A stretch of 24,661 nt of DNA from an uncultured Candidatus Saccharibacteria bacterium (GTDB lineage Bacteria; Patescibacteriota; Minisyncoccia; Phycocordibacterales; SBAW01): the NCBI GenBank assembly GCA_964559665.1, contig CAZLHN010000001.1, positions 1 through 24,661 on the forward strand, given 5' to 3'. A program made the translations under genes and the position numbers. The notes beneath the pieces are model-generated. The model made no database searches. It worked only from the letters and a program-made list of their open reading frames with translations, and was not told where the DNA came from. Of the stretch, positions 4,261 through 21,008 are shown one piece after another; the first letter of the stretch is position 1, and each line of letters opens with the position of its first letter.

Positions 4261-4307
4261 AAAACATAAAGGGCAGATCTTCTATATTTATATAGAAAAT
4301 CTGCCCT
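4261..4307 (-). terminator. intrinsic terminator
   Basis: Inverted repeat AGGGCAGAT-c-TTCTATAT / ATATAGAA-a-ATCTGCCCT followed on the minus strand by TTTATGTTTT. Confidence 0.75.
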
Positions 4308-4646
4308 GGTAGTGGCCTCTCGAATCACTGCGCTCTCCTCCAAGCAGTGAAGAGATCTCTCGGGATCATCCGCCCTAGCGGCTAACGACACGAAAGGCTT
4401 TGCCGTGAAAGTCCACGCTCGGGAGCCTCCGCAGGATCACGCGGTCCTGCGAACACTTTCTCCCCTTGCGCCATAACACCTCCAAACATCGGATGCACGA
4501 TTGTCCGGAGCAGAACCAGCGGAATCTGCATACGCTCAGCACCATTTTCCTCAGTAGGTTCTGTGCAAAAGAACGGTGCCTGTCATGACTAGCCCGCTCC
4601 TCAGACTTGGATGGAAGTTCTTTACTGTCTATCTTCCAAAGACTCT

Positions 4647-4674
4647 ATTATAAAGAACGAGACGAAGTCTTGAA
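4647..4674 (-). promoter_or_regulatory. putative sigma70 promoter (perfect -10, weak -35)
   Basis: TATAAT at 4652-4647; TTCAAG 16 nt upstream. Confidence 0.45.
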
Positions 4675-4739
4675 GTGGCTGTGAAATCCGTGTACAGAAA
4701 GTCGCTCCAAGTGCGGCGAGTCTCTATACCACGAACTCT

Positions 4740-4975
4740 CTAAGGGTTCTTGTATCGCGGGAGCCCTTAGCTCACCATCCGCGAATGTAGCCCGGCGGAA
4801 TCATGGACTCTCCTCCAGCTTCGGCCAACAACTGTTGCGGGCCGAAGAAGAGGAGCGAGCAGGATCAAAAACCCTGACTCGCCCCACGCTGTACGCACGC
4901 GAACAAAGAACCCATGAGCAGGGGGAGCCCGAAGGTCTGCCCCTGCTTGCTGTTGCTGGTCGGACGTCTGCCGAC
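4740..4975 (-). ncRNA. candidate structured RNA / 3' trailer of the ubiquitin-like operon
   Basis: At least five hairpins including a cUUCGg tetraloop (4928-4935), plus long-range helices 4744-4759/4898-4913 and 4802-4813/4905-4916; no credible ORF. Found by eye, not by folding software. Confidence 0.5.
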
Positions 4976-5268
4976 TAGTTGCCCTTGATCTTGCCGACCA
5001 GGAGCACGGTGTGGCCGGCCTTGAGCTCGGTTGCCAAGGTAGCCGCCTTGCCCTGGACGCGGATCTCCTTGCCGTCGGCCGAGAGTCCCGCGCCCTCAAG
5101 CGCGTCCTTGACCGTGCGGCCGCCGTTGAGGGCGATCGACTCGATCCGGCCGGGCAGGCGCCCGACGCGGACTTCGATGAAGCCCGGATCCTTGGCCGAC
5201 TTGGCCTTGGGAGCCGGAGCGCTGCGGGCGGCGGTGGAACGCGAACGGGTAGCAGTTGCGGTGGCCAT
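4975..5268 (-). CDS. ubiquitin-like (beta-grasp, ThiS/MoaD-fold) modifier with basic N-terminal tail, ends -KIKGN
   Basis: EVRVGRLPG...GRTVKDALEGAGL...EIRVQG...TELKAGHTVLLVGKIKGN matches the beta-grasp pattern. Start moved from 5328 to 5268 because of a GGAGG SD; 97 aa. Confidence 0.85.
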   Translation of the reverse strand: MATATATRSRSTAARSAPAPKAKSAKDPGFIEVRVGRLPGRIESIALNGGRTVKDALEGAGLSADGKEIRVQGKAATLATELKAGHTVLLVGKIKGN

Positions 5269-5338: not shown

Positions 5339-5695
5339 TCAGAGTTGTTGCAGTTGCAGTCTTTTTTCAGAACTGGGCAGTGCGGGATCCGCGAGGCAGA
5401 CGTAGTCTCCCTCGCGGATCACATAGTCCATCGGAACATCGTCTGCGTTGGCGAGCCGGAGCCTTTCCGGCAGCCAAGGCCTTTCCTTACCGTAGCTATG
5501 TCCGGATCTCATCGAGCAGTTCTCTTGGAGCCAGACCAGCAGTTCGGAAAGCGTCATGCCGACAACGAAGTCGGCCGCAAAGGCGATATCCCTTCCGCAA
5601 TCGACGTATGCAACCGGTCCTGCCGGCCGCCGTACGGCGATACTTGTCGCGGGCCGCTTGTAGAGCGACCCGAACCACTGAATGAGGCTCCGCAT
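5339..5695 (-). CDS. probable second beta-grasp/ubiquitin-like protein lacking a C-terminal Gly
   Basis: GMTLSELL...LRLANADDVPMDYVIREGDYVCL resembles the ThiS/MoaD signature; sits in the operon 9 nt after the E1 stop. Confidence 0.6.
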   Translation of the reverse strand: MRSLIQWFGSLYKRPATSIAVRRPAGPVAYVDCGRDIAFAADFVVGMTLSELLVWLQENCSMRSGHSYGKERPWLPERLRLANADDVPMDYVIREGDYVCLADPALPSSEKRLQLQQL

Positions 5696-5704
5696 GCAGA
5701 GCCC

Positions 5705-6403
5705 CTAGAACTGACGGTTGATGATTGCCATCGACGGGCGGAGCGAAAAGATGATCTCGTTGTCGAGGTCGTCCTGCTCCCCCCGTTCTACAGCGAACCA
5801 CCGTACCATCTGCCAGACGGCGAGTCCAGCGATGACCTCGGCCGTGGGGCCGACGGAGATGGAGGCCCCGCAAGCGGATACCTCTGCCTCCTGGTCGGTG
5901 TAGAGCGTCTGCTCCCATTCCCGGATATGACCGAGCTTGCTGGGATTGAACGCGTACACGCGGCCGTTGTCGGCGCCCATGCGGGTCTCGACCAGCAACT
6001 TGGTGCGGAGCTTGAACTTAAGCGCCCCGTCCCAGATCGCCTTTCTGGAGCCGTCTCCGTCGGTCATGGTGTCGACGAGCAGGAATACGATCTCCCCGAG
6101 CTCGCTTGAGGCCGTGACCTTTTCGGCGTGCGTTTGGACCGACACGCCGGTTGCTTCGTGTATGAGGCGCGCGAGCGCCTCGGTCTTGAGTGCGCCGACG
6201 TCGCCGAGCCCGAAGGCCTGATTGGCGACGTTGTGATCCTCGATCGTATCGAAGTCGTGGATGTGGATGTTCTCCACGCCCAGCTTCGCGAGCGAAAGAG
6301 CGACGCGTGATCCGGTGGCTCCGCACCCGATGACATCGACGCGACGCGCGCCGAATGCATAGGGCGGAAACACCGTTATGTGGCGCAGGGGGTCAACCGA
6401 CAC
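5705..6403 (-). CDS. ThiF/MoeB/E1-like adenylating enzyme
   Basis: RHITVF Arg, VIGCGATGS nucleotide-binding loop, DFDTIEDHNVANQ, LLVDT, ETRMG, crossover-loop Cys (SACG, 5870-5872). GTG start with GGGGAG SD preferred over ATG 6421. Confidence 0.92.
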   Translation of the reverse strand: MSVDPLRHITVFPPYAFGARRVDVIGCGATGSRVALSLAKLGVENIHIHDFDTIEDHNVANQAFGLGDVGALKTEALARLIHEATGVSVQTHAEKVTASSELGEIVFLLVDTMTDGDGSRKAIWDGALKFKLRTKLLVETRMGADNGRVYAFNPSKLGHIREWEQTLYTDQEAEVSACGASISVGPTAEVIAGLAVWQMVRWFAVERGEQDDLDNEIIFSLRPSMAIINRQF

Positions 6404-7178
6404 TGGATGTCTCCCCTGCATGCGTCATCGTCGGATCGAGGACGACGATCCTGCCGGTACGGTTGCCCGAGATCTCCCCGGTATACCCAGGATGGGCTGG
6501 CTGTGGGCCTCCCTTCCAGGATGAAACAACCGTATGGGTCGGATAGACCTTCCTCGAGACCTTGTCGTTAAACTCGGTCTCGAGCTCGGCCCGCATGCTG
6601 TCGTCGATCTGGTCCCAGATGGACCACGCGGCGTCGATCACCTTCACTCCGGAATCCCAGAAGAAGATGTCGAACCGCATGACCCCCTGCTTGTTGAGGA
6701 TGCCCCGGATAAACCATGGGCATCCGCTGTCCCGGAGCTCGTCCATCTGCCGATTGTCCTGGTAAGACGGATCGGTCGACATATTGACGTGGCTGTGGCC
6801 CCAGAACCGGAGCCGGTTAGCCACGTCCATGCCGTCGGAGCGAGTTTCGATGAGGTGCTGGACAAGCTTTGCCTGTCCTTCCGTGGAAAGCTCAGTTTGA
6901 GCCGACGTAACCTCCTGTTCAAGGAGGAACACCTCCTCGATGACGAAGTTGCCAAGCCTCGTCATCTTGACCGTGCCGAGCCAGCCGACTTCTTCATGGG
7001 CGATGTCCACCAAGTGATACATCCGGGAGTATGCGTCCCGGCTGACATACACATGAGGGACCGGCCTATCGATGAATTCGATCCGACCCGGCGTACGCTG
7101 TTGCACGAACGGCAGCGCGGGCTTGGGGACGGACTTTGTCTTTTTTGCCTGGCGCGGCCGTTTCGCTGTAAGCTTCAT
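6393..7178 (-). CDS. JAB/MPN+ (JAMM) metalloprotease, prokaryotic deubiquitinase/Ubl-maturase type
   Basis: EVGW Glu, then WGHSHVNMSTDPSYQD = H-x-H-x7-S-x2-D JAMM motif (HSH at 6789-6797). Start at 7178 with AGGAG SD, 261 aa; the ORF-track extension to 7388 overlaps the upstream gene. Confidence 0.92.
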   Translation of the reverse strand: MKLTAKRPRQAKKTKSVPKPALPFVQQRTPGRIEFIDRPVPHVYVSRDAYSRMYHLVDIAHEEVGWLGTVKMTRLGNFVIEEVFLLEQEVTSAQTELSTEGQAKLVQHLIETRSDGMDVANRLRFWGHSHVNMSTDPSYQDNRQMDELRDSGCPWFIRGILNKQGVMRFDIFFWDSGVKVIDAAWSIWDQIDDSMRAELETEFNDKVSRKVYPTHTVVSSWKGGPQPAHPGYTGEISGNRTGRIVVLDPTMTHAGETSSVG

Positions 7179-7194: not shown

Positions 7195-9537
7195 TTAGGC
7201 CGCGACTGGCCAATCGCTGATGTGCTTTCCGGCTGAGTCATCGGTGTTGACCGACTCGATGAACTGGATAGCCACCATCGCAAGCGCCGCGAACTCGTAA
7301 TTAGCGACGAGCTCGGGCAGTATTTCATGCATGTTACCGAGACAGGCCGAACCGTCTCCGGAAAAGACGTGCGGTGCATCATGACCATTTATCTTCCGCG
7401 TGAGGTTGAACCAACGGACCTGACCGTTGAGCCCGACCTCGATGCGGAAGGCGCCTATCTCATGTTTCTTCTTCGAGCGCGGATCGACGCAATAGAGGAT
7501 GTCGGTAAACACCTCGATCGCGCCTTCCTCGATGCGCACGTCACGGACCTTGTCGACCTCGAGCAGATTGTCGAACTCCTTGCCGTAGCCTTCTTCGACT
7601 CCGGCGTTGGATGCCTCCAACTGCTCGAGCTTGCGCCGAGCTCCGTTTCCCTCGCGAATGCACTTCACGAGTTCTTCTTGGAGCTGATTGACGCGGGTCT
7701 CGTTGTCCTTGATCGCACGCTTCGTGCCTTCGATAGTCTTTTCAATCCGGCGGGCACACGCCTTCATGTACGCTTCGCGCGAAGCGGCGCGGCGCTTTTG
7801 GCGCCGGTCCTCCTCGCGTGCCGCCTTTTCCTCGGGGGTCGCGGTCATGATGGTGATCGTTTCCTCGAGGATCTTGCGGAAGAGCACAGATACGGACTTG
7901 CCGTCCCAAGAGAGACGAAGGTCCGCAGAAGCAGAAAGTGGGTAGTGGATGTAGAGACTGTCACCGATGAGCTCGCCGACCTGATTGCCGGCGTCGTCCT
8001 CGATAAGCAGCCCTTCACCCGAGGGGCGCACGATTTTGCAATCGCGCCCCCACGCAAGCCTCGCCCCGAACAGGGTCTGGCTCATGCTGCGATGCGTCCG
8101 GTAGTTGGGCGACGAAAAGATGCACACGTGCACCCTGCCGTCGTTTTCCGGCGCATGGCTTTTCTCCCTGCGATAGTCGTCGTGGATAATGACCTGCTTG
8201 CCGCCGAACGCCGGTGCAAGTTCGGTCGCTACCGCGACAAACTCCACCTTCAATGCCGATGCCCCGCTCCAGTTAGAAGCGCGCACCGGCGTCTGCCGTG
8301 CCTGCTGTCGGGAACGCGCCGCCTTTTCCTCATCGGTCGCGGTCATCATGAATGCCGCTTCCTCGAGAATACGACGGAAGAGCGCCGATGCGGGTTTGCC
8401 GTCCCAGGCGATACCAAGTTCTTCCCTGACGAGCGCATAGTGGATGTAAATGGTTTCGCCGACGACTTCGCCGACTTGGTTTCCATCCTCATCCTTGATG
8501 GTAACCCCGTCCCCCGAAGGGGCCAGGATCTCCGCGTTGCTAACGAACCGCAGCGACGCCCCGAAGAGTTCGGAGCGCATATGACCGTCCCCATTGAGGT
8601 GCGGCGACGCATTAATGCACACGTGCATCTTGCCGTCGGCGTACGGCGCTTTGTCGTGATACGAGTTCCACGCATGCAGGACCATCTGCTTGCCGAATGC
8701 CGGCGCAAGCTCGGTCGCTACTGCAAGAAACTCGGCACGCATGGCGCTTGAGGCATTCCATTCCATGACCCGAACGAGTACCTGTTCGCGCCGCCGGGCA
8801 CGCGCTGCCTTTTGCTCGTCGGTTGCGGTCCTAAGAAAGACCGCTTCCTCGAGGATCTTGCGGAAGATGCTCGCGGAGTTCCGGAAGTCCGAGTTGGTGA
8901 TGGGATAGAAGATGTAGAGGTTATTCTGCACCAGCTCCCCAATCTGCACACCGGCATCGTCCTCGACTCTGATGCCTTGGCCGGACGGAGTGCGGATATT
9001 CCACGCTCTCTCTGAGAGTGTTTCCCCCCAAAGTATAAATGGACCTCCGACCGTCCGAACCTCGCCTACGAGAGACGACCACAGCTGGATATGGAACTTG
9101 CCGTCTAAGACCGCGGGAGTGCCCCTGTAAGCCTCCCGATTGTCATGGATGACGATCTCGGGCGTGCGCAAAAGCGAGACGAAGTCGCGTGCGATGGCGA
9201 CATACTGCTCGCGAATGCGTTCGCTTGCTTCCCGCGACCACTGCGCGACAGTGACGACGCGGGAGGCCGAAGGCGGCGGCGCAGCCGGTGTCGCGGCACG
9301 ATTAGCCGTAGCGCGGTTGGCCGGGGCGCGCTGGAGTGTGATAGCCGTGATCCCCTCGTATTGCGTGGGTCTGCGGCTTTCAACTTCCGAATGCAGCGCC
9401 TCAAGCACGCGAGGCAAATGAGCCTCGTTGAACACCAGCCCGTCCTGCCTTCCGATGCGGAAGTCTTCGACGGGGATGTTGGCGGTCCGGAATGCGCTTA
9501 CGCGCGCATCCGTCCGAATAAGGAAGTAAGTATTCAA
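7195..9537 (-). CDS. multidomain E2/UBC-fold protein: small N-domain, 3 tandem ~160-aa repeats, coiled coil, C-terminal E2-like domain
   Basis: C-terminal APHVFSGDGSACLGN matches the E2 HPN...G.ICL motif (Cys codon 7342-7344). TTG start at 9537 chosen for its AGGAG SD (780 aa); the ORF is open to 9783, but that TTG is the -35 box. Confidence 0.75.
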   Translation of the reverse strand: MNTYFLIRTDARVSAFRTANIPVEDFRIGRQDGLVFNEAHLPRVLEALHSEVESRRPTQYEGITAITLQRAPANRATANRAATPAAPPPSASRVVTVAQWSREASERIREQYVAIARDFVSLLRTPEIVIHDNREAYRGTPAVLDGKFHIQLWSSLVGEVRTVGGPFILWGETLSERAWNIRTPSGQGIRVEDDAGVQIGELVQNNLYIFYPITNSDFRNSASIFRKILEEAVFLRTATDEQKAARARRREQVLVRVMEWNASSAMRAEFLAVATELAPAFGKQMVLHAWNSYHDKAPYADGKMHVCINASPHLNGDGHMRSELFGASLRFVSNAEILAPSGDGVTIKDEDGNQVGEVVGETIYIHYALVREELGIAWDGKPASALFRRILEEAAFMMTATDEEKAARSRQQARQTPVRASNWSGASALKVEFVAVATELAPAFGGKQVIIHDDYRREKSHAPENDGRVHVCIFSSPNYRTHRSMSQTLFGARLAWGRDCKIVRPSGEGLLIEDDAGNQVGELIGDSLYIHYPLSASADLRLSWDGKSVSVLFRKILEETITIMTATPEEKAAREEDRRQKRRAASREAYMKACARRIEKTIEGTKRAIKDNETRVNQLQEELVKCIREGNGARRKLEQLEASNAGVEEGYGKEFDNLLEVDKVRDVRIEEGAIEVFTDILYCVDPRSKKKHEIGAFRIEVGLNGQVRWFNLTRKINGHDAPHVFSGDGSACLGNMHEILPELVANYEFAALAMVAIQFIESVNTDDSAGKHISDWPVAA
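7804..9255 (-). repeat. three tandem intragenic repeats (~490 nt / ~162-166 aa period)
   Basis: Recurring PSG.G..I.D..G.Q.GE...LYI.Y and FR(K/R)ILEE...TAT.E.KAAR; identical 23-mer TTCCTCGAGGATCTTGCGGAAGA at 7861 and 8845, with a variant at 8359. Confidence 0.9.
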
Positions 9538-9748
9538 TGTACTTCTCCTTTGCTGGGCCGGCACGAGGATCATTCGCCCCATGCCGGACTGTGAGAACAG
9601 GCCACCCTTAACCGCCCTAAAGCGGAGAATGGCCTTGTATATAGCACGTATGAAGCCGGGGATTTCTCTCCCGGTGTTTTCAACGTACGAAGTGCTTGTC
9701 GGGCCTATACTCTGCGGCTTGCGCCGGGTTTCGGGCCCTTCCAAGGCT
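9538..9748 (-). promoter_or_regulatory. structured 5' leader of the ubiquitin-like operon (candidate cis-regulatory RNA)
   Basis: Four consecutive hairpins: 9715-9726 (GCAA tetraloop), 9643-9696, 9599-9635, and 9558-9587 just before the SD. Confidence 0.5.
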
Positions 9749-9754
9749 GCCGGG

Positions 9755-9783
9755 AGTTTAGCATGATTGATTACATTTGTCAA
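9755..9783 (-). promoter_or_regulatory. sigma70 promoter of the ubiquitin-like operon
   Basis: TTGACA (9783-9778), 17-nt spacer, TGc-TAAACT extended -10 (9760-9755). Confidence 0.8.
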
Positions 9784-17019: not shown

Positions 17020-18591
17020 ATGCCCGATGCTAAGGAAATCGTTGGCAAGATGAGCTCTCCTACTGCGGAGGATACCGCCCTGGTCGAAAAGGCCTACGCT
17101 TTTGCCGCCGAGGCGCATAAGGACCATAAGCGATTCTCCGGCGAGCCTTTTTTGACGCATCTAGCCGCCACGGCCGAGTCGCTGGCCGAACTCGGCATGG
17201 GCTCGAAAACCATCGCCGCAGGGCTGCTGCATGACACGATCGAGGACATGCACGTTGATCCTGCGGTCATTGAGCGTGAGTTCGGCAAAGACGTGCTTTT
17301 TTTGATAGACGGCGTGACCAAGCTCGGACATCTCAAATATCGCGGTACCGAGCGGCACCGCGAAAGCTTGCGCAAACTGCTGGTCGCAACCGGCAAGGAC
17401 GTGCGGGTGCTCATCATCAAGCTGATGGACCGGCTGCACAATATGCGCACGCTTGAATACGTGCCGGAGGCAAAGCGCCGCCGCATTGCGCTTGAGACGC
17501 TCGAGATCTATGCGGCAATCGCGCACCGCCTCGGCATGGGAGTGGTGCGTAAAGAGCTCGAGGACCTCGCCTTCCGTTGGGCGTACCCGGAGGAATACGC
17601 CGAGGCGCAGAAATTGTTGACCGAAAAGGCAAAAGAGACGCAGGAACGCCTCGAGGAGATGACGCGCACGCTCAAAAAAGAGCTCGCCAAGAACGAGATC
17701 ACGCAGTTTGAGACCGACTACCGGGTAAAAGGCCTCTGGAGCCTATGGCAAAAGCTCAAGCGCAAGGAGGGCGACGTCGCCAAAGTCTACGATATCGCCG
17801 CGCTGCGCGTGGTGGTCGAGAATATTGCGGATTGCTACCGAGTGCTCGGCATCGTCAACAACCTCTGGCAGCCGCTCCCCTACAAGATCAAGGATTACAT
17901 CGCCTTCCCGAAGCCCAACGGGTATCAGTCGCTCCATACCACCGTGTTTGCCGGCGACGGCGGCATAGTCGAGGTACAGATCCGCACGCGCGAGATGCAT
18001 CGCGACGCGCAGTTCGGCATCACGGCGCACGTGATATATAAAGAGCGCGGCAAGGGCGCTACCGCCGGGCCCGCTCGAGGGCGCGGCTCGAGCTTTGACT
18101 GGATACGTTCGCTCTTGCCGGGCTTCAGGCGGCCTGCGGAGCAGAAGCCCGACGAGAAGTCCGCTCCGGCGGCGGCAAAACCCGCACGCACGCGTTACGG
18201 GTCGGCGCCGGTGCCCGAATGGCTCTCGGGGATCGAGGAAAACGAGCTCGAGGACCCCGACTTCGACACCGCAGTGCGCGGCGACATATTCTCGCACCGG
18301 GTGTTCGTATTCACCCCGCGCGGCGACGTGGTGGACTTGCCGACGCAGGCAACCCCGATAGACTTTGCATACGCGATACACTCCGACCTCGGCAACCGAG
18401 TGGCTGGGGCAAAAGTCAATGGAAAGTTAGTCCCGCTCGATACGCAGCTCCACAACGGCGACATCGTCGAGATACAGACAAAAAAGAACGCGCGGCCAAA
18501 AACAAAATGGCTCGACTTCACCAAAACAACCATGGCGCGCAGGCATATCAGGAACGCCTTGGAAGCAGAAAAGAAAAACTCCGCACTCTAG
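17020..18591 (+). CDS. rel: RelA/SpoT homologue: (p)ppGpp hydrolase + synthetase + TGS, no ACT domain
   Basis: AGLLHDTIED, IKLMDRLHNMRTL, YDIAALRVV, KDYIAFPKPNGYQSLHT, EVQIRT, TPIDFAYAIHS (TGS). Confidence 0.93.
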   Translation: MPDAKEIVGKMSSPTAEDTALVEKAYAFAAEAHKDHKRFSGEPFLTHLAATAESLAELGMGSKTIAAGLLHDTIEDMHVDPAVIEREFGKDVLFLIDGVTKLGHLKYRGTERHRESLRKLLVATGKDVRVLIIKLMDRLHNMRTLEYVPEAKRRRIALETLEIYAAIAHRLGMGVVRKELEDLAFRWAYPEEYAEAQKLLTEKAKETQERLEEMTRTLKKELAKNEITQFETDYRVKGLWSLWQKLKRKEGDVAKVYDIAALRVVVENIADCYRVLGIVNNLWQPLPYKIKDYIAFPKPNGYQSLHTTVFAGDGGIVEVQIRTREMHRDAQFGITAHVIYKERGKGATAGPARGRGSSFDWIRSLLPGFRRPAEQKPDEKSAPAAAKPARTRYGSAPVPEWLSGIEENELEDPDFDTAVRGDIFSHRVFVFTPRGDVVDLPTQATPIDFAYAIHSDLGNRVAGAKVNGKLVPLDTQLHNGDIVEIQTKKNARPKTKWLDFTKTTMARRHIRNALEAEKKNSAL

Positions 18592-19229
18592 CCAAGATGC
18601 GCGTGGTCGTTTACGACCGAAAGATACCACGGCCATGCCGTGTCTTTTTCGTTATCGTATCCGATGATCGAAAGGCCCGTATTTTCCATATGAATGCCGT
18701 TTACAAAAACGCCACACTCGCGCGATAGAATGTCCTTTCCAAATAACGTGCAGGCTAGCAGAACCTTTAAGAACCATCCATGAGTCACTACCAAAATGTG
18801 CTCTTGCGGAAGATCCTCTAGGTATTTGAGTGCAGCCGCGACTCGCACAGTTACCTCTGCAAAATTCTCTTCGTCCGAGTAGCGCGGCCCATTAGTATAA
18901 AAATTGTTGTCGATTATCTTTTGTATCCGCGCCATCTCGGGATCAAGCTCGGAGTTACCGATAAGCTCAGAAGCATTGCGCCCTTCCACAAATAGAGCGG
19001 AATTCATAATCACTCGGCCCGTCTTGTCGGCGATATGCTTGGCGGTTTCCTGGGCGCGCGTCATAGTGCTTGCAATAATGACACCGATCGGCAGCTTCAT
19101 CGCACGCTCGGCCATAAACTCTGCTTGTGCGTGGCCCCTTTCGGTCAGAGGCGACGTATCGGATGCATGCATATTGGCCGCGTTCGCAACGCTTTCGCCA
19201 TGCCTGACAAAATAGATCTTCTTTTTCAT
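18588..19229 (-). CDS. histidine phosphatase (phosphoglycerate mutase family), paralog 2
   Basis: VRHGES, STMTRA, VVTHG motifs; ends NDHAHLG. Confidence 0.9.
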   Translation of the reverse strand: MKKKIYFVRHGESVANAANMHASDTSPLTERGHAQAEFMAERAMKLPIGVIIASTMTRAQETAKHIADKTGRVIMNSALFVEGRNASELIGNSELDPEMARIQKIIDNNFYTNGPRYSDEENFAEVTVRVAAALKYLEDLPQEHILVVTHGWFLKVLLACTLFGKDILSRECGVFVNGIHMENTGLSIIGYDNEKDTAWPWYLSVVNDHAHLG

Positions 19230-19238
19230 ATATGGGAT

Positions 19239-19871
19239 TCAGCCTAGGTGCGCGTGGTCGTTCCAGACCCATACAAGCCAAGGATTTCTCCTTCGAGCCT
19301 CATCCCATCGCAACACGCTTAAGCCTGTATTTTCTAGCTCAAACGAAGACATAAAAGCATTGCATTCGCGAGCGGTAAGAGAAGCGCCAAAAACCGCATA
19401 TGATATCAATACGCGCGAGAAAAGCCCGTGGGTTGCAACTACAATATGATCCTCTTTTCTTTGTGTAAGATATGTTAATGCTTTTTCCGCACGCTCCTTT
19501 CTATCATCGAAGTTTTCTTCGTCCGCAAAACGATATCCCGGCCCAAAGTTTTCCCAGATTATTTGCCATGCGGCCGACCCTTCCGGATCATTATACGGTT
19601 TGGACTCAAACTTACTTAATCCACGACATTCAACAAAAAGATCAGAAAATTCCGCCCGTACGTCTATCCTTTCGGCGATTATCGCGGCAGTATCGTGTGC
19701 GCGAGTCATGGTACTTCCTAAAACTAAATCAATAGGAAGCTTTGCGCAACGCTCCGCAATAAAAGCGGCCTGCTCGCGACCGCGCGCAGTAAGCGGTGTA
19801 CTTGCGCTTCCGTGCACGAGAGCCACATTCGCCTCGCTCTCACCGTGCCGGACAAGATATATCGTCTTCAT
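19239..19871 (-). CDS. histidine phosphatase (phosphoglycerate mutase family), paralog 1
   Basis: VRHGES, STMTRA, VATHG motifs; ends NDHAHLG; ATG abuts the parB stop. Confidence 0.9.
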   Translation of the reverse strand: MKTIYLVRHGESEANVALVHGSASTPLTARGREQAAFIAERCAKLPIDLVLGSTMTRAHDTAAIIAERIDVRAEFSDLFVECRGLSKFESKPYNDPEGSAAWQIIWENFGPGYRFADEENFDDRKERAEKALTYLTQRKEDHIVVATHGLFSRVLISYAVFGASLTARECNAFMSSFELENTGLSVLRWDEARRRNPWLVWVWNDHAHLG

Positions 19872-20828
19872 CTAGATAGAGAAATTGCTCGGGTCGAAGG
19901 TGTTTTCGTCTTTTGTGATCTCTTCTTTGCTGCGATCATCCAGGTTTTGAGACTCCGGAGTCGGAACCTCTACCTTTTTTTCCTGAGCAGGCTTCGAAGC
20001 TATCCTGGCTGCAAGCGACGCAAACAATACGCGTAGATCGTCCTCGCTCATAAAATCTATCGAGAGCTTGCCGCCGTTTTCCTTGGGCTCTATCGCCACG
20101 CGCGTGCCGAGCGCAGCCGTCAGCTCGCGCTCCATTTCCAAGATCTCGGGCGCGTACAGATATTCCTTTTTGCGCACGCGGTCGTATGCGATGCGGCGCG
20201 CGATTGACTCCGAGTCCCGCACGGTGAGCCTCTTCAGCATGATCTCCTTAAAGAGCGTCGTCTGCTCCTCGGGCCTGTCGACCAGCATCATGAGCGGCCG
20301 CGTGTGGCCCTCGGATATCTTGCCGTCGGCAAGCGCCTGCTGCATTTCCTCGGGCATGCTGAGGAGTCGGATCGTGTTGGATACATACTCGCGGCTCTTG
20401 CCGATCTTTGCAGCCACCTCCGTGTGCTTGAAGCCGAACTCTGACACAAGCCGCGAGAAAGCCTTGGCGCGGTCGATCGGGTTGAGGTCCTCGCGCTGGA
20501 GGTTCTCGATTATCGCGAGCTCGAGCTTGGTCTTGTCGTCGTCAAACGAATCGCGGATCAAGACCGGCACCTGGGATATACCCGCGAGCTTTGCCGCGCG
20601 CAGGCGGCGCTCTCCCGCTATCAGTTCGTATTCCGCCGCTAAGCCGCCATCTTCCTTCTCTACCTCGCGGCGCGAAACTGTGAGCGGCTGGATGACGCCG
20701 TACTGCCTGACCGAGTTGGCCAGGTCGCGCAATTTTGCCTCGTCGAACTCGCGCCGCGGCTGGAAGGGGTTGGGCTTTATCTTGTCGACCTCGACCCAAA
20801 AAATAGCGTTGTTGTAAAAGCCTGCCAT
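19872..20828 (-). CDS. parB: ParB/Spo0J partition protein
   Basis: PNPFQPRREFD, GVIQP, LIAGERRLRAA, IENLQREDLNPID, HTH. Start reset to ATG 20828 because the longer ORF overlaps tRNA-Leu. Confidence 0.94.
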   Translation of the reverse strand: MAGFYNNAIFWVEVDKIKPNPFQPRREFDEAKLRDLANSVRQYGVIQPLTVSRREVEKEDGGLAAEYELIAGERRLRAAKLAGISQVPVLIRDSFDDDKTKLELAIIENLQREDLNPIDRAKAFSRLVSEFGFKHTEVAAKIGKSREYVSNTIRLLSMPEEMQQALADGKISEGHTRPLMMLVDRPEEQTTLFKEIMLKRLTVRDSESIARRIAYDRVRKKEYLYAPEILEMERELTAALGTRVAIEPKENGGKLSIDFMSEDDLRVLFASLAARIASKPAQEKKVEVPTPESQNLDDRSKEEITKDENTFDPSNFSI

Positions 20829-20858
20829 AAAAGATATTCTAACACAGCAGAGTAGTTT

Positions 20859-20940
20859 GCCGGAGTGGCGGAATTGGTATACGCGCACGACTCAAAATCG
20901 TGTCTCGCAAGGGATGAGGGTTCGACTCCCTCCTCCGGCA
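20859..20940 (+). tRNA. tRNA-Leu(CAA), CCA not encoded
   Basis: GCCGGAG/CTCCGGC acceptor, CACGA-CTCAAAA-TCGTG anticodon arm, long variable arm, TTCGACT T-loop. Confidence 0.96.
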
Positions 20941-21008
20941 CATAGTTTATTTTTTATAGATCTGTGGTAGTGTGCGTAGCAGTTTTGGACCTTACAAGGG
21001 AGGGGCAG

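Follow-up and report, generated by a model that had tools for sequence, protein, structure and literature searches.

How a ubiquitin-like tagging pathway might choose its targets when no E3-like gene accompanies it is the question raised by a four-gene cassette in a 24,661-nt stretch of DNA from an uncultured Candidatus Saccharibacteria bacterium (assembly GCA_964559665.1, contig CAZLHN010000001.1, positions 1 to 24,661; hereafter, the window). The cassette encodes a 780-amino-acid (aa) multidomain protein with a C-terminal domain resembling ubiquitin-conjugating enzymes (E2-like), a JAB/JAMM metallopeptidase, a ThiF/MoeB-type activating enzyme (E1) and a ThiS-like ubiquitin-like protein (Ubl). 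No E3-like gene was found in it by hidden Markov model (HMM) scans or by comparison with related loci. Here it is proposed, as the reading that the evidence favours on balance, that the 780-aa protein is the conjugating component of a Ubl tagging cassette, with the three tandem repeats of its N-terminal part serving as a built-in E3-like adaptor.

The full open reading frame (ORF) of this protein spans 7195..9783 on the reverse strand, with its stop codon at 7195-7197. The three nearest database homologues (P0002-P0004, 43-47% identical) all open with MxSYF, which aligns with the TTG at 9537, and an AGGAG Shine-Dalgarno (SD) site precedes this TTG; the homologue starts and the SD site thus give a true product of 780 aa (7195..9537), the start that the first-pass annotation had chosen. 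That annotation, made from the letters alone, had also described three tandem copies of a domain followed by a stalk and an E2 domain. The repeats were recovered within a few bases of the earlier coordinates, followed by a helix of about 90 aa and a C-terminal domain of about 117 aa, while an N-terminal domain of 70 aa and an Ala/Pro-rich linker had been overlooked. The 82 additional ORF codons upstream of the real start (9538-9783) are unconserved in the homologues, and some database gene calls (849 aa) take in part of them; because this stretch is unconserved and a promoter-like site lies at 9783-9755, the gene probably has a 5' leader of about 220 nt.

The AlphaFold model of the C-terminal domain (predicted local distance difference test, pLDDT, 86) has a long helix, four strands, a loop carrying a His and a Cys, short helices and a longer helix, an order of elements that, as predicted, matches a minimal ubiquitin-conjugating (UBC) fold. 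Among 63 diverse members used for a family profile, the APHV motif has an invariant His and at least 90% of the members keep the Cys of G-x-a-C-L-G, with a spacing of APHV-x3/4-G-x-a-C-L-G that places the His 8-9 residues N-terminal to the Cys. Aligned by hhalign to four canonical human E2s, whose sequences were entered by hand, this profile scored 31.1 (P=1.7e-4) over 126 collinear columns, compared with 13.7 for the reversed profile and at most 20.5 for 30 column-shuffled profiles. The alignment set A-P-H-V on H-P-N-I and G.aCL on G.iCL, with the conserved Cys on the catalytic Cys. The cassette holds no other E2 candidate, and the gene is coupled with those for the E1, JAB and Ubl in related loci. 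The C-terminal domain is therefore likely to be a divergent E2-like conjugating domain, as a resemblance supported by context and not as a demonstrated membership. The first-pass label of E2 agrees with the operon context, the model topology and the hhalign result, whereas recognition by Foldseek, Pfam, NCBIfam, PADLOC and PDB profiles did not follow.

The gene order E2-like, JAB, E1 and Ubl is kept in 11 of 13 related loci; in L012 the Ubl ORF sits between the E2-like and JAB genes, and L006 ends within the JAB gene. The JAMM motif of the window JAB is intact and is conserved in 12 homologues. The E1 proteins are 227-238 aa long, with one ThiF domain and without a dedicated Cys domain; the window copy matches Pfam ThiF (1.7e-19), the PADLOC E1-E2 models (best E=1.2e-15) and, below the cut-off, the NCBIfam 6A-MBL cap2_3 model (3.9e-13), the best NCBIfam matches being ThiF, all below cut-offs. 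The Ubl profile aligns with Escherichia coli ThiS through to the C-terminus (hhalign P=1.6e-4), with its G-N set on the G-G of ThiS, and maturation would expose Gly or Asn. In the window and in L001, L004, L007-L009, L012 and L013, the Ubl ends in an invariant K-(I/V/T)-(K/R)-G-N, after which the chain stops, runs on for one or two residues or, in a Doudnabacteria locus, carries a long extension, and the Ubl of L013 is fused to a C-terminal extension of about 250 aa. These variable extensions past KGN imply proteolytic maturation of the Ubl, a process that has been shown for BilA and BilC (PMC10557695). No Ubl match was found in L003 and L006 (both of which run off the contig end), in L011 or among the small ORFs of L013.

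Between the E1 and Ubl genes of the window lies orfX, which has no counterpart in the 13 related loci and no family match in the HMM libraries, and which may be a lineage-specific accessory gene or no gene at all. It was considered as a second Ubl and rejected, having no similarity to the Ubl. Downstream of the Ubl stop, the approximately 670 nt that extend to a terminator-like hairpin (4308-4974) contain no convincing ORF, tRNA or Rfam match.

With a Ubl most similar to ThiS and a minimal ThiF/MoeB-like adenylase whose best, sub-threshold NCBIfam matches are ThiF, the cassette could instead be a sulfur-carrier or biosynthetic pathway of the ThiS/MoaD-ThiF/MoeB type, with the JAB acting as in CysO/Mec+ or QbsE/QbsD and the large protein as a Cys-dependent accessory factor. 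The E2 assignment is without database support, and the tRNA-modification genes dusB and miaA are among the window neighbours, which is in line with this alternative; however, that neighbourhood is unconserved in the other loci, and the loci examined hold no rhodanese, cysteine desulfurase, ThiG/MoaE/CysM-type partner or other biosynthetic gene. The Ubl C-terminus is GN and not GG, and the collinear E2 alignment, with its matched Cys motif, outscores the controls. A sulfur-carrier role is accordingly considered improbable.

The N-terminal part of the protein is dominated by repeats of about 155-160 aa, named R1 to R3 from the N-terminus. All of the motifs that had been listed before are present in each of the three: W, DG(K/R)xH(I/V), L(W/F)G, PSGxG and DxxGxQ(I/V)GE, followed by (L/I)YIxY, FR(K/R)ILEE and TATxE(E/Q)KAAR. 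In pairwise blastp, R2 and R3 match at E=1e-53 with 50% aa identity, R1 and R3 at E=6e-29 and R1 and R2 at E=1e-23; by sequence comparison, the homology of the repeats is far above chance. At the DNA level, direct repeats with a period of 486-498 nt were found, R2 and R3 being 76-86% identical across stretches of 42-107 nt, and, when aligned by codon, R2 and R3 are 62% identical while R1 shares about 50% with each of them. Tandem Repeats Finder reported no array in the gene because the copies are too diverged. This null result and the modest codon-aligned identity indicate that the intragenic duplication, which the first-pass annotation had read from DNA identity and which holds, is old and not recent.

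A profile of nine repeat units (three from the window protein and two from each of three homologues) was searched against 1.84 billion representative proteins, as the first-pass annotation had suggested, and the repeat proved to be a sizeable family, with 432 representative proteins at E<=1e-3 and 134 at E<=1e-10. Local HMMs of the N-terminal domain, of the repeat and of the C-terminal domain were run on 167 retrieved proteins; the general layout is (N-domain)-repeat(n)-C-terminal domain, with the E2-like C-terminal domain present in 149 of the 153 repeat-bearing proteins. One repeat copy was counted in 93 proteins, two in 50, three in seven, four in P0025 and five in P0021, whereas the C-terminal domain stands alone in 14 proteins. 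Six proteins contain two C-terminal modules; these are P0099, P0078 and four others, in which two tandem units of coiled coil plus E2-like domain follow a single repeat. Several of the short proteins with only the C-terminal domain come from contigs of less than 3 kb and may be fragments, and P0015 is the sole convincing stand-alone C-terminal copy among them. In P0017 (L016 5100-7900), pieces of the N-domain, repeat, E2-like domain and JAB of a full-length cassette lie in different frames, probably through assembly error or as a pseudogene.

The three nearest homologues of the window protein hold two repeats, and the additional copy in the window is R2. Among 56 units from multi-repeat proteins, R2 and R3 of the window are the sole reciprocal best pair, which points to R2 as a lineage-specific duplication of the distal repeat type and, since no such pairs occur outside the window, to the repeats elsewhere as old positional types. 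The idea that copy number varies between strains was thus upheld only at a larger evolutionary distance: it varies between lineages (one to five copies, with two in the nearest homologues), while the cluster at >=90% identity contains the same three-repeat protein as its only other full-length member, together with fragments, so that no strain-level copy-number variants were seen. The repeats are 31-45% identical to those of the nearest homologues, compared with 68-71% for the E2-like domain; judged by these identities, the repeats evolve faster than the catalytic domain.

A model of the N-terminal domain with R1, built from a 40-sequence alignment, reached a mean pLDDT of 92, and the predicted fold of the repeat opens with beta-alpha-beta-beta, continues with about seven short strands and closes with two helices. 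The TATPEEKAAR helix ends each repeat and, in the last one, starts the stalk; it also opens the short repeat-less member P0013. Foldseek searches of the repeat model against PDB and BFVD returned nothing at E<=1e-3. No significant match was found in Pfam, NCBIfam, PADLOC or PHROGs with the whole protein and 10 diverse members, the remaining matches being coiled-coil noise. Similarly, PDB sequence and profile searches with the whole protein, with repeat profiles of 9 and 40 sequences and with C-terminal profiles of 4 and 63 sequences gave nothing relevant, and their top matches, KdpB (E=0.16) and gp120 (E=2), are both attributable to chance. These empty searches, despite a confidently predicted fold, show that the label of unrecognised domain of about 160 aa was correct, and the repeat would be a new family and possibly a new fold. 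Comparison by hhalign with the C-terminal domain and canonical E2s ruled out the repeat as an inactive E2/UEV/RWD copy, and hhalign also ruled it out as a relative of the N-terminal domain.

W, G, P and hydrophobic residues make up most of the positions conserved in at least 70% of 40 repeat units; D, E, Y and R account for others, and there is no Cys, no His and no set resembling a Cys/His/Ser triad. This sequence pattern suggests a module for binding or structure more than an enzyme, and a role in binding a target or partner is plausible. A second catalytic activity, with the repeat as a degenerate class-I glutamine-amidotransferase-like or hydrolase fold, is suggested by the best PDB structure matches, which are class-I glutamine-amidotransferase domains (E=0.02-0.3, none of them significant; 8hx9 at E=0.02 and prob 0.85, then 1kxj and 7d97), and by the recurrent His (DGxFHI) and Ser (WSS, PSGxG) of the repeats. 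However, these matches have template modelling (TM) scores of 0.24-0.29 when normalised to the query (<=0.33 to the target), with 0.28 for the best match at E=0.02, and root-mean-square deviations of 7.5-10 A, none reaching E<=1e-3. There is no conserved Cys, the His is less than 70% conserved across the family, and arrays of one to five motif-keeping copies would be typical of binding modules, all of which makes an enzymatic repeat very improbable.

The stalk that joins the repeats to the E2-like domain is predicted as one 92-residue helix (AlphaFold, residues 2-93 of the modelled piece), 45% charged, with Ile, Leu, Val, Met and Ala at a/d positions. Its hydrophobic periodicity of 3.5 residues has a power of 73.5, compared with 10 in shuffles, a value reached by 0.1% of shuffles. 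This pattern most naturally reads as a coiled coil about 13 nm long, formed by a dimer or a higher oligomer; in antiparallel pairing, each chain would have its repeats next to the E2 head of its partner. At the opposite end of the protein, the N-terminal domain is modelled with pLDDT >95 in the order beta-alpha-beta-beta-alpha-beta-beta, and its HMM ('nt') matches 66 of the 167 scanned proteins. Its local Foldseek matches to ACT and PII-like domains (prob 0.8-0.9 over about 40 residues, E 0.3-0.6) weakly suggest an ACT/ferredoxin-like layout, and the domain could be a small-molecule sensor, which is of relevance to the earlier idea of a trigger.

In the proposed mechanism, the JAB would trim the Ubl at its conserved ...K-G-N end, and perhaps also remove the Ubl; the E1 would adenylate the exposed carboxylate; and the Ubl would move to the near-invariant Cys of the E2-like domain (APHV..G.aCLGN), from which it would be handed to the target. 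The E2-like domain would tip a coiled coil of about 13 nm that probably dimerises the protein, while the opposite end would hold the small ACT-like domain and one to five (here three) non-catalytic repeats of about 155 aa; the repeats would dock the enzyme on its target or partner, with the copy number setting avidity or reach. The adaptor idea, which takes up the first-pass suggestion that the repeats are built-in receptors for a substrate or trigger in place of an E3, is put forward because the array evolves fast, its copy number is variable, the repeats have no catalytic signature and the cassette has no E3 gene.

Several points weigh against this proposal. Even at E<=1, no Pfam (UQ_con, Prok-E2_A-E), NCBIfam or PADLOC E2 model matches the window protein or the 10 diverse members; the PDB searches with the 4- and 63-sequence C-terminal profiles found no E2; and Foldseek of the C-terminal model against PDB gave no significant E2, UbcH7 being fourth in rank (E=0.8, TM 0.21-0.28). 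The canonical E2 sequences behind the hhalign result were, as stated, entered by hand. The Ubl ends in GN instead of GG, and an E1 without a Cys domain leaves a thioester relay in doubt. If the coiled coil is straight and parallel, the repeats would stand about 13 nm from the active site, which makes simple substrate presentation awkward, and a scaffold or partner-docking role fits the repeat data equally well. Finally, the neighbours in the window are housekeeping genes (dnaX, dusB, serS, topA, relA/spoT, two histidine phosphatases, parB and miaA), those in L001, L004 and L008 are likewise ordinary, and no defence or regulatory role is therefore readable from the context.

The scaffold role can be stated as the main alternative, in which the cassette performs Ubl conjugation with a true E2, and the repeats are structural or assembly modules that oligomerise, dock the E1, JAB or Ubl non-covalently, or offer auto-modification sites. 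The largely structural character of the conserved positions (W, G, P, hydrophobic) is what such modules would show, and the helix of about 90 residues parts the repeats from the catalytic head. Members with very short or undetectable N-terminal modules (P0015; L013, L017-L019) indicate that the catalytic core can stand without recognisable repeats, and outside the window protein the repeats are old positional types, not rapidly turning-over copies. On the other hand, the repeats diverge faster than the partners that they would dock (the E1 gives phmmer E~1e-110 across loci), they number one to five while the E1, JAB and Ubl are single-copy, and they contain no invariant Lys for auto-modification. 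Assembly modules are for these reasons rated as the rather unlikely option, and the conjugating enzyme with a built-in adaptor is retained as the working proposal.

The related loci come from Paceibacterota, Saccharibacteria and Doudnabacteria metagenome-assembled genomes (MAGs), a Thermoanaerobaculia MAG, a MAG labelled Flavobacteriaceae and several metagenome contigs; the cassette is thus found mainly in bacteria of the Candidate Phyla Radiation (CPR). In the Thermoanaerobaculia MAG, a large serine recombinase (L012 40-1116) lies about 4 kb upstream of the cassette, which hints at horizontal transfer outside the CPR. A scan of IMG/VR with a hand-made degenerate DNA pattern for APH(V/I)-x3-G-xx-C-(L/F)-G-N returned exactly three contigs (L017, L018 and L019; 152-213 kb), each encoding the E2-like protein, JAB and E1, with a Ubl (ending KVKGAC) in L019 and two adjacent E2-like genes (636 and 385 aa) in L018. 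The viral status of these contigs is thin, consisting of the IMG/VR label and a single weak portal match. The repeat HMMs do not recognise the N-terminal regions of the IMG/VR E2-like proteins; hhalign against the repeat gave collinear but marginal similarity for L019 (P=0.013) and L013 (P=0.026), so that a description of these regions as unrelated modules in viral homologues has to be softened.

The stand-alone protein P0015 (L014 8001-8687) consists of 228 aa of stalk and E2-like domain without repeats, and no E1, JAB or Ubl lies nearby. It sits amid small ORFs that run in one direction in a phage-like manner, among them NADAR, an ATP-dependent ligase and a CheR-like methyltransferase, and its contig comes from the same sample as the two-repeat homologue L001. 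P0015 might serve a mobile element as a decoy for the host pathway or as a way to hijack it.

Table 1. Positions of the cassette genes, domains and associated sites in the window (SD, Shine-Dalgarno site).
Feature	Position	Strand	Basis
Gene for the 780-aa multidomain E2-like protein	7195..9537	-	ORF; start from homologues and AGGAG SD
N-terminal domain, about 70 aa	9328..9537	-	AlphaFold; present in many family members
Ala/Pro-rich low-complexity linker	9256..9327	-	pLDDT 52-67; alignment-variable
Repeat R1, proximal type	8782..9255	-	Motifs, pairwise blastp, AlphaFold
Repeat R2, distal-type lineage-specific duplicate; missing in the three nearest homologues	8293..8772	-	DNA repeats, alignment, blastp
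Repeat R3, distal type; last helix TATPEEKAAR continues into stalk	7807..8283	-	
Putative coiled-coil stalk, charged heptad-periodic helix of about 90 residues	7549..7821	-	AlphaFold, periodicity
C-terminal E2-like domain, about 117 aa; four strands, APHV...GSACLGN loop, then helices	7198..7548	-	
Invariant His of APHV; aligns with Asn of E2 HPN	7369..7371	-	Conservation, hhalign
Candidate catalytic Cys, >=90% conserved; aligns with E2 catalytic Cys	7342..7344	-	Conservation, hhalign
JAB/JAMM metallopeptidase, E...HSH-x7-S-xx-D	6393..7178	-	PADLOC JAB E=3e-4; SD and ATG
Single-domain ThiF/MoeB-type E1; start ATG 6421 or, likelier, GTG 6403	5705..6421	-	
orfX, 118 aa, between E1 and Ubl; weak SD site; gene status uncertain	5339..5695	-	
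ThiS-like Ubl, 97 aa, Ala/Lys/Pro-rich basic N-terminal tail, ...GKIKGN end	4975..5268	-	
Promoter-like site upstream of the cassette	9755..9783	-	Consensus match only
Terminator-like hairpin downstream of the Ubl gene	4270..4307	-	Consensus match only

Elsewhere in the window, two adjacent paralogous His_Phos_1 genes (18588-19871, reverse strand) lie beside relA/spoT. A tRNA-Leu(CAA) gene (20859-20941, forward strand) overlaps the 5' end of the longest parB ORF (19872-20888, reverse strand), and the true parB start is therefore probably further downstream.

In gene content the cassette is nearest to BilABCD (bacterial ISG15-like or 6C-6D operons; Chambers et al., PMC10557695), while its E1 is nearest to the ThiF-like domains of Cap2-type enzymes. 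Like BilABCD, it has four genes for a Ubl, E2, JAB and E1, with a putative minimal UBC-like E2 without C-terminal helices, and the Bil Ubl carries an extra residue past the reactive Gly (Ala98 after Gly97), removed by the JAB (PMC10557695), which is comparable to the ...G-N end described here. In contrast, the Bil E1 is multidomain (IAD+AAD+CYS), whereas here it is a single ThiF domain of 227-238 aa; BilB has a conserved His C-terminal to the Cys (CEHH in Type II; PMC10557695), whereas here the His precedes the Cys by 8-9 residues, with no conserved His after the Cys. Descriptions of Bil E2s mention neither a coiled coil nor N-terminal repeats, and Bil operons lie in defence islands, unlike the present cassette among housekeeping genes; no PADLOC defence-system HMM matches the 780-aa protein. 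Bub (6E; Ye et al., PMC11601596) is likewise a diverged bacterial E1/E2/Ubl operon with an unknown biological target, but it uses oxyester (Ser) intermediates and the serine protease BubE (PMC11601596), where the present cassette has a conserved Cys and a JAMM peptidase.

With Cap2/Cap3 of the type II cyclic-oligonucleotide-based antiphage signalling systems (CBASS), the cassette shares a ThiF-type adenylation domain, a JAB partner and a putative minimal E2; it differs in that Cap2 is an E1-E2 fusion, whereas here E1 and E2 have a gene each and are accompanied by a dedicated ThiS-like Ubl. Neither the window nor the related loci yielded a CD-NTase or effector. The sulfur-carrier systems with a JAB (CysO-Mec+, QbsE-QbsD) have in common with it a ThiS-like beta-grasp protein, a minimal E1 and a JAMM enzyme that trims the C-terminus, but the cassette has no sulfurtransferase or biosynthetic partner, an extra E2-like protein and a GN end in place of GG. 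The closest functional analogy is with UBE2O and BIRC6, eukaryotic E2/E3 hybrids in which a canonical UBC core shares one polypeptide with large substrate-binding regions and in whose function oligomerisation plays a part; the 780-aa protein has no kinship with them in sequence or domains, and their binding regions are unrelated to the repeat. The literature searches returned no account of the cassette, and nothing in the libraries or papers searched describes a bacterial E2 that combines a coiled coil with a variable array of a new domain. The cassette is rated as a further, previously undescribed form of the known bacterial ubiquitin-like conjugation operons.

Bacterial Ubl conjugation (type II CBASS, Bil, Bub) has only recently been shown to be real chemistry, and target choice in the absence of an E3 is largely open. 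To this field the cassette would add a compact operon family, with an E2 beyond current HMMs and a minimal ThiF-type E1, and the variable array of a new domain on a conjugating enzyme would offer a way to probe the encoding of specificity. The repeat occurs in at least 432 sequence clusters, none of them annotated. As the cassette lies next to CPR/Patescibacteria core genes and also on large viral contigs, it may serve in housekeeping regulation, in defence or in counter-defence. A bolder version, doubtful as it stands, would make this an undescribed E2/E3-hybrid family of coiled-coil dimers, in which tandem repeats of a new fold read a (possibly periodic) target and the stalk sets the site of Ubl attachment, within a compact Ubl/E1/E2/JAB pathway that is chromosomally fixed among CPR housekeeping genes and also acquired by very large phages. 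If true, the E2/E3-hybrid reading would mean a Ubl regulatory or defence system in some of the smallest known bacterial genomes.

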